From an uncultured Bacteroidales bacterium (lineage in GTDB: Bacteria > Bacteroidota > Bacteroidia > Bacteroidales > UBA10428): a DNA stretch of 29,696 bases. The translations under genes were made by a program, and so were the position numbers. The notes beneath the pieces are model-generated. The model was not told where the DNA came from. It saw only the letters and a program-made list of their open reading frames with translations, and did not search any database. Position 1 is the stretch's first letter, and every line of letters begins with the position of its first letter. The stretch spans positions 1-29,696 of the forward strand of contig CAZFHF010000001.1 in the NCBI GenBank assembly GCA_964518655.1, read 5' to 3'. Shown here one piece after another: positions 2,458 to 20,207 of the stretch.

Positions 2458-3315
2458 TTAATTTTTATTTATATTAACATGTCTGTCAGAATGATATGAT
2501 GATCTCACCTGGGGGCCGCTTTCCACATATGCAAATCCTTTTTGCAACCCCGTTTCCCTGTATTTTTCAAACACCTCAGGATTTATATATTCTGCTACCC
2601 CGGCATGTTTTTCAGACGGCCTGAGGTATTGTCCTATAGTAAAAACCTTAACCCCGGCATTCAGGAGATCGTCCATTGCCTGTTCAACCTCATCTTCCCT
2701 TTCGCCCAGTCCTGCCATGAGACCTGACTTTGCAACAATACCTGATGAAGCTATATGTTTCAGTAAATCCAGGCTCCCGTCATATGTAGCCATGGATCTG
2801 ATCTCCGGAGTAAGCCTCCTTACTGTTTCCAGGTTATGTGAAATAACCTCAGGTTTTTCTTTAAAGATAGCATCCACCGCTTCAGGTCCTCTTCTGAAAT
2901 CAGGAATAAGTGCCTCAATGGTTGTCCCGGGATTAAGATTCTTTATTGTTTTTATTGTCGCTGCCCAGAAACTAATCCCTCCGTCTGCCAGGTCATCTCT
3001 CGCCACTGAAGTAATGACACAATGCTTCAGTTCAAGTGATCTTACAGTTTCTGCAAGTCTTTCCGGTTCAGTCCAGTCAACAGGTTCAGGCTTCATGGTG
3101 TAAACCTGGCAAAATTTACAGTTTCTGGTGCACCTGTTGCCAAGGATCATAAAGGTTGCAGTACCCGCACTCCAGCATTCTCCTTTATTCGGACAATTGC
3201 CGCTGACACAGATTGTATTCAGGTTTTTATCAGCTATAATATTCTTCACCCGTGAATAATTTATGCCATGGGGCATCTTCACCTTCATCCACCGTGGAAG
3301 CCTTTTGTTATTCAT
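2458..3315 (-). CDS. lipA: Lipoyl synthase LipA (radical SAM)
   Basis: 285 aa with CxxxxCPNxxEC (CVSGNCPNKGEC), radical-SAM CTRNCKFC, HNLETV, GQYLRPS and VRSSYH motifs. Confidence 0.97.
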   Translation of the reverse strand: MNNKRLPRWMKVKMPHGINYSRVKNIIADKNLNTICVSGNCPNKGECWSAGTATFMILGNRCTRNCKFCQVYTMKPEPVDWTEPERLAETVRSLELKHCVITSVARDDLADGGISFWAATIKTIKNLNPGTTIEALIPDFRRGPEAVDAIFKEKPEVISHNLETVRRLTPEIRSMATYDGSLDLLKHIASSGIVAKSGLMAGLGEREDEVEQAMDDLLNAGVKVFTIGQYLRPSEKHAGVAEYINPEVFEKYRETGLQKGFAYVESGPQVRSSYHSDRHVNINKN

Positions 3316-15262: not shown

Positions 15263-16267
15263 CTAAGACTCCTCTTTTTTCGCTATTAATTTATTAAGAT
15301 CAGATTGAATGAGTGCTGCTGTCACAGGGAAAAACACTATTGTGAACAACAATATCACCCACTTCCTGTATATCCGGATACCTTTATCCCCGCAATATTC
15401 CTCCATCACATCATAAAAAGTTGTAGTTATGATTGGTAAGGTTACCGTGAATAACAGAGTAATCCAAAATGCGCCCCTTCTTGATAATAATTTCGGTGAC
15501 CGGGTAAAACAGCTAAGGTCGCTATGGATCTTATATATGAAATATAAAGCATATACAGGTATGATATTGAGCAAAAAAGTAATAGCTACGTCCTGTCTGT
15601 ATGCATCATGCTGTATTATTCTTTGTTTGGGCTCTTTATCAAATAATGCATTTTTTATTGGTATCAGAAATATCGTTCCAATAATAAGTTGTGTAACCGG
15701 AACGGTTTTTAATAACATTAAACTTGCATCTGCAAGATGAGAAGACTCAAGGTTTGTTAATAGCCCTGCTGTAACAAAAGAAATTGACGAATGTTGTATT
15801 CTTTCGTAAACCAGAATTATCACGTATAAACCGGCAAAAACACTCATCCCTGCCCTTCCGCCGGCAATGATGGATGGTATAATTAACAGAACCGAACTAA
15901 ATCCAAATCCCCACAAAGCAGCTCCGATATATTGAATCGTATAATCCTTCCCTGTAAAATATAATACCAGGAAACTTCCTATAATCTGAAGTAAAGCCAT
16001 GCCAACCAGGCAAGCTTTAACTTCTCCAAATTTCATTATTATCCAGCCAATAAGAAATCCTGCTAATCCGCTTAAAGTCAGAATCGAAAAAATAACACCT
16101 GTGTGGAATGCACTTATGCCCAGCCTATAAGTAAAGCTGTAATAGGATGAACTAAAAAATGCATATGCTGATATACTAAAGAGGAAGAATATCACCAGGC
16201 CCCAGAATGTATAAGCACTTATCTGGTCCGCCCAGGTCCATGCATGATTCGGATTTTCATTTTTCAT
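15263..16267 (-). CDS. Membrane protein: ~6-TM MFS-like half fused to a DUF4234-like C-terminal domain
   Basis: 334 aa with six N-terminal hydrophobic helices, then ITFLLNIIPVYALYFIYKI...ALIQSDLNKL resembling DUF4234. Family assignments are from pattern recall. Confidence 0.6.
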   Translation of the reverse strand: MKNENPNHAWTWADQISAYTFWGLVIFFLFSISAYAFFSSSYYSFTYRLGISAFHTGVIFSILTLSGLAGFLIGWIIMKFGEVKACLVGMALLQIIGSFLVLYFTGKDYTIQYIGAALWGFGFSSVLLIIPSIIAGGRAGMSVFAGLYVIILVYERIQHSSISFVTAGLLTNLESSHLADASLMLLKTVPVTQLIIGTIFLIPIKNALFDKEPKQRIIQHDAYRQDVAITFLLNIIPVYALYFIYKIHSDLSCFTRSPKLLSRRGAFWITLLFTVTLPIITTTFYDVMEEYCGDKGIRIYRKWVILLFTIVFFPVTAALIQSDLNKLIAKKEES

Positions 16268-16486
16268 AACTTGGTCTCCTGTTTTTAAATTTATTTAATA
16301 AACTGATCATCAACCGGATTGTTTTTTACAGTCCGTCAAATATCAGATTATAAATAAAATGATTAGTATTCAATGAATTAAAGTATTATTAATTGCATAA
16401 ATAACATAAGATGGATATTGAATTATCTTATAATAATAATGCAAATTAATTTAAAAAGTGACATGACACAAATTATTGGGAATTTT

Positions 16487-16776: not shown

Positions 16777-17127
16777 ATGTTTGAAAATAAAAAAAATAGC
16801 CTGCTTCCTTTTTCCTTGTTTATAAAAAGGGTCTTAAAGTACTTTTTTTATACGTTGATTATTATAGGTTTTTCTTTGCTGACAGGTACTCTGGGATATC
16901 ATTATATTGCCAGGCTGGCCTGGATTAATTCCTTTTATAATGGGTCAATGATATTAACAGGAATGGGTCCTGTGGATGTTATGATCAATAATTCGGCAAA
17001 ATTGTTTTCGTCATTCTATGCTTTATTCAGCGGTGTTGCATTTCTAAGTACCATAGCAGTTTTATTTGCACCCATTGCCCACAGGTTTTTACACACATTT
17101 CACCTGGAAGAAAATAATTCAAAGTAA
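16777..17127 (+). CDS. Small 2-TM ion-channel-like (Ion_trans_2-like) protein
   Basis: 116 aa with layout TM - W..SFYN.SMILTGMGP - K.F...Y...G TM, as in pore-loop channels but with a non-canonical filter. Confidence 0.6.
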   Translation: MFENKKNSLLPFSLFIKRVLKYFFYTLIIIGFSLLTGTLGYHYIARLAWINSFYNGSMILTGMGPVDVMINNSAKLFSSFYALFSGVAFLSTIAVLFAPIAHRFLHTFHLEENNSK

Positions 17128-17136
17128 AACTGACTG

Positions 17137-17673
17137 ATGCATATAATAATTATTTATCTGGGCATATTATTCGGAATTTTTATTGAAGGTGAAATGATAA
17201 TGATATCTTCAATTATTGCTGCTCATCACGGGTATCTGAACCTTTGGCTGGTGGTAGTACTGGGATTGTCAGGAACATATTGTTCCGATTGCTTTTACTT
17301 CTTTCTTGGCAGAAAAAAGGGCAGGGCCTGGTTAAATAAGAAACAGAAATTAAAAAACAAAGCAGTTATAGTCGATAAGAAGTTGAAAAAATCACCTGTA
17401 GTTATTTACATTAGCTACCGGTTTTTGTATGGATTCAGAACCATTATCCCCCTGGTTATCGGCGCCGGTTCAACAAAAACAAGGACATTTCTGTTTTTCA
17501 GTGCGGTAAGTACGTTTATCTGGGCTGTTTTATATTGCACAATAGGGTACTTATTCGGGGAAATACTAAAATCAGAACAGGGACATATAGAGCATATTGA
17601 AAAGTATATAATCGGTGTTTTATTGCTAGCAGGTATAATATTTATAGCAATAAAAAGACTGAAAAAAAAGTGA
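17137..17673 (+). CDS. DedA family (VTT domain) membrane protein
   Basis: FIEGE...AAHHGYL...GTYCSDCFYFFLGR, SYRFLYGFRTIIPLVIG, SAVSTFIWA..Y..IGYLFG. Confidence 0.9.
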   Translation: MHIIIIYLGILFGIFIEGEMIMISSIIAAHHGYLNLWLVVVLGLSGTYCSDCFYFFLGRKKGRAWLNKKQKLKNKAVIVDKKLKKSPVVIYISYRFLYGFRTIIPLVIGAGSTKTRTFLFFSAVSTFIWAVLYCTIGYLFGEILKSEQGHIEHIEKYIIGVLLLAGIIFIAIKRLKKK

Positions 17674-17871
17674 TATCCCACTGCATAAAAAAATCCTGGC
17701 TGGCAACAGGCGAACAGGTGAAACAGCAGTTATAATAAAAATCACAGCCGGCTTTAACTTATATGCAACATTTCATATGTTGTATACGTAATCTCTGCTC
17801 AGAATAAGCAAATATTTACCTGGCGGTTAAAAAATATCTGCAAAAATGAGGCGCATATTGAAATATATATT

Positions 17872-17879
17872 TAAATTTG
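17872..17879 (+). promoter_or_regulatory. Putative -7 promoter box for the corA transcript
   Basis: TAAATTTG, 118 nt upstream of the corA ATG, implying a long 5' leader. Confidence 0.55.
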
Positions 17880-17903
17880 CCCTCCTAATAAAAATTCACG
17901 AAT

Positions 17904-17942
17904 ATGGACGCAGACCCTTATAATAGTACAACAAAATATTAA
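17904..17942 (+). CDS. Candidate corA leader peptide MDADPYNSTTKY
   Basis: ATG..TAA ORF of 12 codons with an A-rich upstream context, inside the predicted corA 5' leader. Translation is inferred, not shown. Confidence 0.4.
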   Translation: MDADPYNSTTKY

Positions 17943-17958
17943 CTATTCTGTAAGGGGC

Positions 17959-17996
17959 ATTATGTCTTCTTGCAGAAAAAAGTGAGGAGGCATAAT
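17959..17996 (+). promoter_or_regulatory. Hairpin occluding the corA ribosome-binding region
   Basis: 13-bp stem 17959-17971/17984-17996 (3 G-U pairs) covering AGGAGG (17985-17990) and ending 1 nt before ATG 17998. Confidence 0.55.
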
Positions 17997-17997
17997 A

Positions 17998-18927
17998 ATG
18001 ATTAAAATCTTTAAAACTTTTGGCGGGTATGTTGAAGTACCCAAAGTTGAAAAAGGATGCTGGATAAACATCATTCAGCCATCACAGGAAGAACTCCAAA
18101 GAATCATCATTGAATTCAAGTTGCCGGCTGATATTGTCCAGGACATCCTGGATACAGATGAAAGATCCCGTATTGAATATGACGATTTATGGACTTTGAT
18201 AATAGTAAGGATCCCTGTTCTGAACCAGAATAACGGAATACCTTATTATACAGTACCTCTCGGGATATTTATGACGGATAACTTCACGCTTACATTATGC
18301 ATCCAGGAAAATGAAATTTTGCCTCTTCAACAGCCCTCTCTTTTCAGAGAACATTACCATCAGATAACAGATGTATTCAATTTTATTCTCAGGCTTTTCC
18401 TACGTTCCGGAGGAACATACCTTAAATACCTGAAGCAAATAAACCAGCATTCATCCATGATTGAGCAGGACCTGGAGAAATCAATAAAAAACAGGGAGTT
18501 AAACCAGTTGCTGAAAATGGAAAAATGCCTTGTATATTTTATTACTTCGATCAAATCAAACGAGATTGTCCTTGCAAAGCTAAGGAACTCAAAAAAAATT
18601 ACAACCGAAATAAATGAAGACCTGCTTGAAGATGCCATAATAGAAAATAAGCAGGCACTGGAAACAGCACAAATTTATTCCGACATTCAGAGTGGAATGA
18701 TGGATGCTTTTGCCTCTGTGATTTCAAACAATCTTAATGTTGTTATGAAGCAGCTCACATTGATATCAATAATATTAATGATCCCTACTTTGATTGCCAG
18801 TGTTTTTGGAATGAATGTGCCAAATTTTATGGAAAGCTCACTCTGGGCGCTGCCTGCAATAATGGGTTTTTCAATATTCCTGTCCTCTTTGGGTGTCATG
18901 TTATTCAGGAAAAAACAATGGTTTTAA
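17998..18927 (+). CDS. corA: Magnesium transporter, CorA family
   Basis: 309 aa with WINIIQPS, D.DERSRIE, VPLGI, ISNNLNVVMKQLT and the signature GMNV in PTLIASVFGMNVP; two C-terminal TMs. Confidence 0.95.
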   Translation: MIKIFKTFGGYVEVPKVEKGCWINIIQPSQEELQRIIIEFKLPADIVQDILDTDERSRIEYDDLWTLIIVRIPVLNQNNGIPYYTVPLGIFMTDNFTLTLCIQENEILPLQQPSLFREHYHQITDVFNFILRLFLRSGGTYLKYLKQINQHSSMIEQDLEKSIKNRELNQLLKMEKCLVYFITSIKSNEIVLAKLRNSKKITTEINEDLLEDAIIENKQALETAQIYSDIQSGMMDAFASVISNNLNVVMKQLTLISIILMIPTLIASVFGMNVPNFMESSLWALPAIMGFSIFLSSLGVMLFRKKQWF

Positions 18928-19664: not shown

Positions 19665-20207
19665 ATGAAACCCAGGGGACCATTAATGATAGAACACAGG
19701 CTGATTGAAAAAATACTGAATATTGTCAGTAGCGAATTAGATATGATTAAAAATGAAAGAAAAGTCAACCCGGTTTTCATAGATACAATAGTTGATTTCA
19801 TAAGAATATATGCCGACCGTACTCATCACGGTAAAGAGGAAGATATTCTTTTTTACAGGCTGGAAAATAAATCACTTGCTAATGATGACAAAAAAATGAT
19901 GCGTGATTTGATTAATGAGCATGTAAATGCGCGTAAAGTAGTCAGTGAACTTGTTAATGCGAAGAACCAGTATGTTAAAGGTGATTCGGGAAGTATTGAT
20001 ATCATTATCGAAAAATTAGCATTCCTGATAAATTTTTATCCGGAGCATATTTCAAAAGAAGACAAAATATTTTTTCCAAAAACTGAAAAATATTTTTCAG
20101 ATGCTGAATTAGATGATATGTTAAAAGATTTTTGGGAATTTGATAAAAAAATGATACACGAAAAATACAACAGGCTTTATGAATCACTCAAAGAAAAATA
20201 CGGATAA
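19665..20207 (+). CDS. Hemerythrin/HHE cation-binding domain protein
   Basis: LMIEHRLI, RTHHGKEEDILF, LINEH and YPEHISKEDKIFFP give the H / HxxxE / H / HxxxE ligand pattern. Confidence 0.9.
   Translation: MKPRGPLMIEHRLIEKILNIVSSELDMIKNERKVNPVFIDTIVDFIRIYADRTHHGKEEDILFYRLENKSLANDDKKMMRDLINEHVNARKVVSELVNAKNQYVKGDSGSIDIIIEKLAFLINFYPEHISKEDKIFFPKTEKYFSDAELDDMLKDFWEFDKKMIHEKYNRLYESLKEKYG

Follow-up and report, generated by a model that had tools for sequence, protein, structure and literature searches.

A conserved leader with an upstream open reading frame and two alternative helices precedes Mg2+ importer genes in Bacteroidota

Introduction

In Salmonella and Escherichia coli, translation of the leader open reading frames (ORFs) mgtL and corL is inversely related to expression of the Mg2+ importer genes mgtA and corA, respectively, and is efficient at high Mg2+, which leads to repression (PMC11552253). 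The residues EPDP that follow the initiator Met of MgtL cause translation to abort within MEPDPT, and N-terminal clusters of Asp, Glu and Pro with small residues act likewise, more so at low Mg2+ (bioRxiv 10.1101/2021.02.02.429294). Here we consider a leader upstream of corA in a stretch of 29,696 nucleotides (nt) from an uncultured Bacteroidales bacterium (GTDB lineage UBA10428; GenBank assembly GCA_964518655.1, contig CAZFHF010000001.1, positions 1 to 29,696 of the forward strand), the whole of which we refer to as the window. This leader contains an upstream ORF (uORF) of 12 codons, followed by RNA segments that can pair in two alternative ways. A preliminary description of the window had proposed that a Mg2+-sensing, Pro-containing leader peptide refolds the RNA and thereby opens the corA start. 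On the comparative evidence presented below, we regard it as nearly certain that the leader regulates Mg2+ importer genes in cis and has two alternative helices; the full model, in which it would act as a Mg2+-responsive, leader-peptide-dependent cis translational attenuator of Bacteroidota Mg2+ importer genes, we consider on balance probable.

The leader resembles that of mgtL–mgtA in several respects: a Mg2+ importer gene has a short uORF in its 5' leader; the encoded peptide has an acidic, Pro-containing N-terminus (MEPDPT in MgtL; MDEGPY, MDEDPYPS or MDADPY here, with MDEDPYPS sharing D-P-x-P with MEPDPTP); two exclusive leader structures would be set by how far ribosomes travel; and completion of the uORF is expected to be inversely related to expression of the transporter. 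The two are nevertheless best described as functional analogues and not homologues. There is no sequence or Rfam relationship between them (Mg_sensor and related models), and the phyla differ. The Bacteroidota leader is about 95 rather than about 260 nt long, has neither a three-way junction nor a rut site, anchors the uORF stop codon in the switch helix, appears to mask the translation start instead of causing Rho-dependent termination, and serves corA, mgtE and mgtA with one and the same design. With corL–corA of Salmonella and E. coli it has in common the regulated gene family (corA) and a uORF whose N-terminus is conserved and whose peptide contains one Pro, and in that system the leader alone responds to intracellular Mg2+ (PMC11552253). 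The corL sequence is unrelated, however; corL starts with UUG, encodes few acidic residues and has a Rho-dependent output, whereas in the Bacteroidota leader the D/E-P motif is stronger and a helix sequesters a Shine-Dalgarno (SD)-like box.

A full-text literature search, with paywalled papers outside its reach, found no description of a cis-regulator of Mg2+ homeostasis in Bacteroidota, and the preliminary description had likewise known of no such leader there. Leader-peptide attenuation of Mg2+ transporter genes is thus known from mgtL and corL; what appears to be new is the uORF and two-helix leader of the Bacteroidota importers.

Results

One leader precedes three families of Mg2+ importer genes

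In the window, corA occupies 17998-18927 of the plus strand and encodes a 309-residue CorA-family Mg2+ channel with a GMN motif (PF01544, E = 5.7e-47; TIGR00383, 115 bits, under the cut-off of that model). Upstream on the same strand, at the positions given in the preliminary description, lie the uORF (17904-17942, with ATG at 17904 and TAA at 17940-42; peptide MDADPYNSTTKY), which is evident both in the sequence and in orthologs, and a -7 promoter box, TAAATTTG, at 17872-17879, which was read from the sequence and matches the conserved Bacteroidota sigma-A type motif (consensus TAnnTTTG). A scan of one genome per GTDB species yielded 80 further corA loci, for a sample of 81 including the window. 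The leader is present in 79 of these, and the 79 leader-bearing sequences form the alignment (A2) on which the pair counts for corA leaders below were made. The uORF and the sequestering hairpin recur together in these 79 loci and also in about 115 metagenome loci among the matches listed (see below), and the conservation of the uORF, on which the earlier proposal had depended, extends to the level of the peptide.

The CorA orthologs are 72-82% identical throughout Bacteroidia. Their carriers include Marinilabiliales, Prolixibacteraceae, Draconibacterium, Saccharicrinis, Anaerophaga, Ancylomarina and Marinifilum, and further loci came from the Flavobacteriales genera Yeosuana and Mesonia and from metagenome-assembled genomes (MAGs) labelled Cytophagales, Lentimicrobiaceae and Chlorobiota. 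Cultivable carriers are Anaerophaga thermohalophila DSM 12881 (L041), Marinifilum fragile JCM 15579 (L065), Mesonia oceanica ISS653 (L080) and Yeosuana marina JLT21 (L055), along with isolates of Plebeiibacterium, Saccharicrinis and Ancylomarina. Over the 100 nt 5' of corA, the consensus reads ATGGACGAAGGCCCGTATCATAG ... TATTAAC ... CTGTAAGGGG ... TTTCCTTACAG ... TGTAAGGAGAC, followed after 6-9 nt by ATG. In the same alignment, the first codons of corA differ freely at their synonymous sites, which indicates that the leader is under selection of its own. Four blocks stand out: block 1, GGCCCnUAU, inside the uORF; block 2, CUGUAAGGGG, with the core CUGUAAGG; block 3, (GUUU)CCUUACAG; and block 4, UGUAAGGAG(AC). 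The two corA orthologs that lack a uORF (L002 and L019, positions 2889-3006 in each) are 79% and 76% identical, respectively. In L002, degenerate versions of blocks 2 and 3 are kept (CTGTAAATAGC...TTTTTTACAGG), so that its upstream region looks like a decayed leader; in L019, labelled as a Desulfobacteraceae MAG, only a block-4-like TTATAAGGAG is left. One further ortholog, L070 (2889-3006), has GTG as the corA start codon.

We also scanned metagenome contigs with the pattern ATGGACGAAGGCCC-N(22-40)-CTGTARGG, which returned at least 120 loci; because blocks 1 and 2 are fixed by this pattern, only blocks 3 and 4 are unbiased in the resulting set. Among the matches listed, 68 loci have corA as the first downstream gene at the usual distance, 46 have mgtE and one (L155) has a P-type ATPase gene of the mgtA type; for the other five listed loci, either less than 600 nt of contig follows the leader or the search gave no transporter match. 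The assignments are secure for both additional families (TIGR00400, E = 1e-118 to 1e-124, for MgtE; TIGR01524, 1199 bits, for the Mg-ATPase of L155), and the mgtE and mgtA leaders retain the whole architecture of the corA leader. Leaders also precede mgtE in a Tannerella MAG (MDDIPIYR...) and an Azobacteroides MAG (MDDGPYHSW...), and two more mgtA loci carry diverged leaders, one in a Paludibacter MAG (MNEDPYPSC...) and the other on a metagenome contig (MSEDPYPSC...). The presence of one leader before three unrelated families of Mg2+ importers (CorA, MgtE and the MgtA-type ATPase) ties it to Mg2+, and we regard this association, drawn from gene neighborhoods, as the decisive result of the analysis.

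The same argument from gene association applies to the M-box (ykoK, RF00380), likewise a cis leader before several unrelated Mg2+ transporter families. The M-box, however, is a metal-binding aptamer of roughly 160 nt without a uORF, in contrast to the peptide-level conservation of the Bacteroidota leader, and its covariance model gave no match in the whole window, nor in 17600-18100 at E <= 10. More generally, no Rfam 15 family reached its gathering score anywhere in the window, and a search of 17600-18100 at E <= 10 returned only noise of the snoRNA type. No second copy of the leader was found in the window or in any fetched locus.

Several observations concern the distribution of the leader among individual loci. 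An 18-codon version, MDEGPYPSCRGKVLFTSL, precedes mgtE in a Bacteroidales species common in human-gut metagenomes (L141:2573-2680, L150:2699-2800), with identical copies in L085, L129, L140, L160, L162, L171, L187 and L190; the gut MgtE cluster P0124 comprises 231 member sequences. In L168 (leader at about 1715, minus strand), a normal leader with block 4 is followed by GC-rich GGCAGGCCCATTCAGGGGCGGCCGC... and no transporter start, which may reflect an assembly chimera or a rearrangement. No leader was found before the mgtA orthologs of a Butyricimonas-assigned contig (L205), a Rikenellaceae MAG (L207) and a Petrimonas-assigned contig (L208), at positions 170-400 of each locus. In these three loci, the mgtA-type gene lies directly downstream of a gene for a HAMP-HisKA-HATPase sensor kinase, and the upstream regions contain repeated TTTCTAATGG / TTCTCTAACGG motifs resembling response-regulator boxes; this arrangement suggests a PhoPQ-like alternative control of mgtA in those lineages. 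In L208, mgtC (PF02308) follows the ATPase gene.

Two mutually exclusive helices are supported by compensatory changes

Blocks 2 and 4 have nearly the same sequence, and each is complementary to block 3, so that helices 2:3 and 3:4 are mutually exclusive. In the window (all on the plus strand), segment 2 (TCTGTAAGGGG, also CTGTAAGGGG; 17947-17957), which resembles segment 4, forms the 5' arm of helix 2:3, the anti-sequestering helix; segment 3 (ATTATGTCTTCTTGCAG; 17959-17975) is the arm common to both helices; and segment 4 (GTGAGGAGGCATAAT; 17982-17996) is the 3' arm of the sequestering helix 3:4, contains the SD-like GAGGAGG at 17984-17990, and ends 1 nt before the corA ATG. Helix 2:3 pairs 17947-57 with 17967-76 (-14.3 kcal/mol), and helix 3:4 pairs 17959-73 with 17982-96 (-17.3 kcal/mol). 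The core of the latter is the hairpin noticed in the preliminary description, in which ATTATGTCTTCTT (17959-71) and GAGGAGGCATAAT (17984-96) form 13 base pairs (bp), three of them G-U, that bury GAGGAGG. RNAfold reproduces both that hairpin, extended to 15 bp, and the shorter stem within the uORF discussed below, with a minimum free energy of -29.6 kcal/mol for the window leader (z = -3.2 relative to dinucleotide shuffles, of which 2/200 were as good).

Both helices fare well when evaluated across the 79 sequences. Helix 3:4 is 89.2% paired, compared with 44-56% when one partner is slid along the other, and 11/12 of its pairs show changes on both sides; none of 500 shuffles matched it on four of five measures, and 4/500 did on the fifth. 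The corresponding figures for helix 2:3 are 95.5% paired versus 46-56% with a slid partner, changes on both sides in 6/10 pairs, and 0/500 shuffles on four of five measures with 1/500 on the fifth (the shuffle controls ignore kinship among the sequences). The consensus structure returned by RNAalifold is helix 2:3, which is the best-conserved pairing of the leader family. The pattern is repeated in the 32 unique mgtE and mgtA leaders, where 3:4 and 2:3 are 90% and 95% paired as against 44-55% for slid partners, and where the covariation score of 3:4 is 0.301, compared with 0.223 +/- 0.017 in shuffles. The compensatory changes in these alignments show support for both of the predicted alternative helices. 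The earlier proposal that the leader refolds and opens the corA start is thus upheld by the comparative tests and by the association with mgtE and mgtA, with the correction that the antagonist of the sequestering hairpin is helix 2:3 and not the stem originally named.

That stem joins segment 1 (CCCTTAT, 17915-17921, plus strand, within the uORF) to GTAAGGG (17950-56) by 7 bp, including one G-U pair. Its complementarity is kept among orthologs (alignment columns 40-46 / 76-82), with 80% of positions paired as opposed to 13-56% when slid, yet it shows no covariation (275/500 shuffles were as good, over the 79 sequences), and its middle pair, which sets the wobble base of the Pro codon against an A, is broken in 62/79 orthologs. 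A second register of the stem was no better and was likewise without convincing covariation. Predicted ensembles of the full-length leader join the CCC of block 1 to the GGG of block 2 about 90% of the time; complementarity to GACGAAGGCCC is greater for the variable loop that follows block 2 (-9.5 kcal/mol) than for shuffled loops (-8.0 kcal/mol; p = 5e-7); and in two outliers, L012 and L057, both sides of the 1:2 pairing have changed in apparent compensation. More weakly than for the other two helices, these observations support some 1:2 interaction. Two other candidate pairings were set aside: a mini-hairpin at the uORF start codon in the RNAalifold output (columns 31-32 / 41-42) involves invariant columns and is uninformative, and the CCTCCT at 17881-86, which is indeed complementary to the AGGAGG in the window as had been pointed out, is peculiar to it, given that CCTCC occurs 5' of the uORF in only 2/199 loci.

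The uORF is conserved as a translated peptide

A TAnnTTTG motif occurs within 60 nt 5' of the uORF in 168/199 related loci, compared with 6.3 expected from shuffles, and in most of these 168 it ends 23-30 nt before the uORF ATG. The conserved position of the -7 box implies that the transcript begins just before the uORF, in agreement with the start upstream of 17904 that the preliminary description had required. In the window, transcription would start at about 17884-17887, leaving the uORF a probable 5' untranslated region of roughly 17-20 nt. A match to an E. coli-type sigma-70 promoter (17895-17924, TTCACG-18-TATAAT, 10/12), which would put the transcription start inside the uORF, was rejected because its TATAAT stems from window-specific Tyr-Asn codons (most relatives have TATCAT), while the -7 box is conserved. 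Before the uORF, the sequence is enriched in adenine at -13, -12, -6 and -3 (frequencies of 0.82, 0.90, 0.59 and 0.71), the positions at which A has been reported to promote initiation in Flavobacterium johnsoniae (PMC13000457).

The uORFs of the corA loci are 12-16 codons long and open with M-D/E-D/E-G/D-P (family consensus M-D-E-G-P-Y-H-S). Their start codon is ATG in 78 of the 79 and TTG in the remaining one (Yeosuana marina, L055:2889-3006). The N-terminus is MDEGP in 56/79, with the variants MDEDP, MDDGP, MDADP, MEEDP, MESDP, MEADP, MNEDP and MDDDP; at least two acidic residues are present at positions 2-4 in every leader (79/79), Pro occupies position 5 in 77/79, and another Pro stands at position 7 in 15/79. 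Within the conserved block, only the wobble base of the Pro codon is free to vary (G52, T17, A6, C4). Position 4 is Asp in all six leaders with a non-acidic residue at position 2 or 3 and is otherwise Gly in 62/73, a compensation at the amino-acid level with a Fisher p of 3e-5 if kinship is ignored. Judged from these substitution patterns, the uORF is under peptide-level selection. In the window, codons 2-5 (GAC GCA GAC CCT, 17907-17918, plus strand) spell the acidic/Pro motif D-A-D-P, which we propose as the source of Mg2+-sensitive elongation.

These patterns bear on the possibility that the leader is an RNA-only switch, such as a metal riboswitch or the binding site of a protein or small RNA, in which AUGGACGAAGGCCC would be conserved as RNA and the uORF would be incidental or a melting aid. 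Consistent with such a reading are the wobble bases of codons 2-4 (C, A, C), which are more than 92% conserved, the complementarity of the 5' conserved block to segment 2 and the following loop, and the apparently compensatory changes of L012 and L057 in 1:2. However, the start codon is conserved (as ATG or TTG) in a Bacteroidia-type initiation context, the only free position of the conserved block is precisely a wobble base, that of Pro, the amino-acid-level compensation keeps at least two acidic residues throughout, and anchoring of the stop codon holds for every reading-frame class (see below). Nor is there an Rfam match, and the RNA has simple hairpins only, with no evident ligand pocket. 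Taken together, we consider an RNA-only switch to be quite improbable.

A second alternative keeps the uORF switch and replaces the signal: prolyl-tRNA or proline, elongation factor P, polyamines, pH or translation capacity could be sensed instead of Mg2+, the importers being regulated because they track ribosome demand. The architecture expected in that case is identical to that of the favored model, and the near-invariant Pro codon, together with the second Pro at position 7 in some leaders, recalls proposals that mgtL senses proline (cited in PMC11552253 and PMC12856214). Against this, the leader was found only before three families of Mg2+ importers, in about 115/115 interpretable metagenome loci among the matches listed; the conserved Pro codon is single and free in its wobble base, unlike a run of regulatory codons; and low Mg2+ is a reported enhancer of failure on N-terminal D/E/P motifs. 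The traits of a classical attenuator of amino-acid biosynthesis (trp, his and leu leaders) are absent from the leader, which has one or two Pro codons, no codon run and no terminator-like site. A signal other than Mg2+ seems unlikely to us, and we infer that Mg2+ is what the leader responds to.

The uORF stop codon is anchored at the switch helix

The C-terminal half of the uORF behaves differently from its N-terminus. In 41/79 leaders, including the window, the stop codon falls at column 65/66 (the TAA of TATTAAC, 8 nt before block 2), and in the other 38/79 it falls at column 77, where CUGUAAGG contains a UAA or UAG. The stop moves from one column to the other through an indel of a single base in the variable middle part of the uORF, from which it follows that the C-terminal peptide is not conserved and its end point is. 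The metagenome leaders, with uORFs of 12-19 codons, still place the stop within -9 to +5 of block 2.

In folding models, helices 2:3 and 3:4 are near isoenergetic across the family (mean free energies of -12.05 and -13.6 kcal/mol), and in the full-length free RNA the modeled probability that the SD-like box is unpaired is 0.04. Equilibrium switching by a ribosome parked at Pro5 was considered and set aside, its mean effect being small (see Discussion), and from that small effect it follows that the switch would have to be kinetic or co-transcriptional. In the model of a nascent transcript that ends just past block 3, helix 2:3 has a probability of 0.81 when the RNA is free of ribosomes; placing one on Pro5 raises this to 0.95, and placing one at the uORF stop lowers it to 0.01. 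Stem 1:2 is seldom predicted in this model (0.05). We therefore favor a kinetic model in which reading through the uORF is what matters.

In this model, transcription would start about 20 nt 5' of the uORF, whose A-rich, SD-less initiation context is typical of Bacteroidia. During synthesis, helix 2:3 would form first and leave the SD-like box and the transporter start free (the ON state), while helix 3:4 would bury both (the OFF state). Since the uORF stop is anchored just 5' of segment 2 or within it, a ribosome that finishes the uORF has to unwind 2:3; once 2:3 has melted, segment 3 would pass to segment 4, and segment 1 could then take up segment 2. At low Mg2+, the acidic, Pro-containing N-terminus would cause early elongation to fail through destabilization, drop-off or pausing, so that ribosomes stop short of segment 2, helix 2:3 stays in place and the transporter is produced. 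With Mg2+ high, ribosomes would read through the uORF and the transporter would be shut off. The trigger is likely whether ribosomes get to the uORF stop at segment 2. We have good confidence that translation of the uORF drives the switch; that the sensor is a Mg2+-dependent failure of early elongation we hold to be the better supposition, with appreciably less assurance.

The four-segment layout is that of ermC and cat attenuation, where 1:2, 2:3 and 3:4 pairings are likewise possible, a short leader ORF is present, the SD and start codon lie in 3:4, and the position of the ribosome sets the fold. In those systems, an antibiotic in the exit tunnel stalls the ribosome on segment 1, whereas here 1:2 is weak and without covariation, the conserved feature is the stop at segment 2, and read-through to that stop (giving OFF) may be decisive; the downstream genes also differ, being those for CorA, MgtE and Mg-ATPase and not for antibiotic resistance.

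The stop codon beside a structured region also invites the opposite sign of regulation, with uORF translation acting positively: a terminating ribosome, which does unwind segment 2, could open the structure and reinitiate or couple at the transporter AUG to give the ON state. But once segment 2 is unwound, segment 3 pairs with segment 4, and the start is masked and not exposed. The distance from stop to AUG (44-59 nt) is long for coupling, a conserved elongation-hindering peptide is hard to square with simple coupling, and the enterobacterial precedents show an inverse relation. We give positive coupling very little weight, and the negative sign stated above would be the expected one.

Another conceivable case is that the switch's main output is premature termination of transcription, by a Rho-dependent route as in the enterobacterial mgtA and corA leaders. 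The closest known systems, mgtL–mgtA and corL–corA, do act via Rho (PMC11552253), and a leader free of ribosomes could expose its RNA to Rho. The Bacteroidota leader, however, spans only about 95 nt, is AU-rich and lacks a C-rich tract, and no terminator-like hairpin with a U-run was found between 17874 and 18000. Furthermore, helix 3:4 lies precisely on the SD-like box and stops 1-8 nt short of the AUG, an arrangement that suits a translational sequestrator and is needless for a terminator. Given a covarying 3:4 helix over the start site, the simplest reading of the output is translational attenuation of the ermC type, and the composition of the leader, its lack of an intrinsic terminator and the position of the helix all point to translational control; transcription termination as the main output appears to us a poor prospect.

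The SD-like box

The preliminary description had called a well-spaced AGGAGG unusual for these organisms, and the comparison bears this out. AGGAG or GGAGG is present at -18..-4 in 65/79 corA leaders, compared with about 1/271 of the other long ORFs in the same loci (a crude count, in that first-ATG starts were assumed), and the spacing from GGAG to ATG is 7-8 nt in 56/68. The A of GGAG is nearly invariant; the matching base of block 2 is usually G, though both would pair with the same U. Ribosomes of Bacteroidia are reportedly blind to SD sequences, and SD control in Flavobacteriales is regarded as limited to rpsU (PMC9976891). The autoregulated rpsU (bS21) mRNA of Flavobacteriia offers a parallel, as a rare instance of a conserved, correctly spaced SD in Bacteroidia, with the difference that its SD spans 9-13 nt and is read by ribosomes lacking bS21, while the box here is a 5-7 nt AAGGAG(G/A) that also forms one arm of a covarying helix. 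The box may be read as an SD or may serve as a helix arm only.

One further reading would take AAGGAG to be a genuine SD, with the importer mRNAs preferentially translated by a specialized ribosome pool with an exposed anti-SD, for example one without bS21. The leader would then join two read-outs of Mg2+, namely failure of uORF elongation and SD-dependent initiation by destabilized or bS21-free ribosomes. The protein bS21 is loosely bound, and Mg2+ or the integrity of the ribosome could itself affect its occupancy. We offer this as a speculative and rather unlikely reading; if true, the leader would be the second natural client, after rpsU, of bS21 "gain-of-function" ribosomes.

Besides corA, the only other long ORF of the window with an AGGAG box is on the minus strand at 15263-16267, and encodes a 334-residue multi-pass membrane protein without a Pfam match; the box lies 9 nt before its first ATG, in AAACAGGAGACCAAGTT-ATG at 16268-16292.

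Genes flanking the leader in the window

On the same strand upstream, at 16777-17673, the window contains a 116-residue membrane ORF without a Pfam match and a gene for a DedA/VTT-domain protein (PF09335). A spacer of 230 nt, which holds the -7 box, lies between these genes and the uORF. Downstream of corA, a hemerythrin-domain gene is found at 19665-20207.

Discussion

The model that we favor, in which Mg2+-dependent failure to complete the uORF keeps the transporter start open, must be weighed against several observations that do not sit easily with it. In the equilibrium folding model, masking by a ribosome at Pro5 lifts accessibility of the SD-like box to a mean of only 0.18, with values above 0.6 in about nine sequences. 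The reported blindness of Bacteroidia ribosomes to SD sequences means that masking of the SD-like box may not be the operative event, although a hairpin that ends 1-8 nt before the AUG would lower accessibility of the start site in any case. The conserved wobble bases of codons 2-4 imply that an RNA- or codon-level constraint acts in addition to selection on the peptide, and the model accounts for this only partly. Two leaders depart from the sensor motif itself: L030 (2567-2684) reads MDEGL, with CTT in place of CCN at codon 5, and L012 (2568-2685) reads MDEASP, with its block 2 changed in parallel (GGGAGC). With one Pro and two or three acidic residues, the motif is also weaker than the EPDP of MgtL. 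Finally, to our knowledge, ribosome destabilization has been demonstrated in E. coli only. The proposal of aborted or paused elongation as the sensor should be read in this light.

If the model is correct, the leader would represent a convergent, sequence-unrelated reinvention of the MgtL principle, with the Mg2+-dependent stability of the ribosome as the sensor, and that principle would be general and not an enterobacterial curiosity. It would operate in a phylum, the Bacteroidota, that includes dominant gut and marine bacteria and that initiates translation without SD pairing. The conserved SD-like box in SD-blind organisms would then provide a second natural substrate for the question of specialized ribosomes and bS21, and L030 (MDEGL) and L012 (MDEASP) are natural variants of the sensor motif. 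The uORF itself constitutes an unannotated family of small ORFs in hundreds of genomes, missed by gene callers. As a compact module of about 95 nt that is found before the genes for CorA, MgtE and MgtA, the leader could also serve as a Mg2+-responsive genetic part for Bacteroidia.

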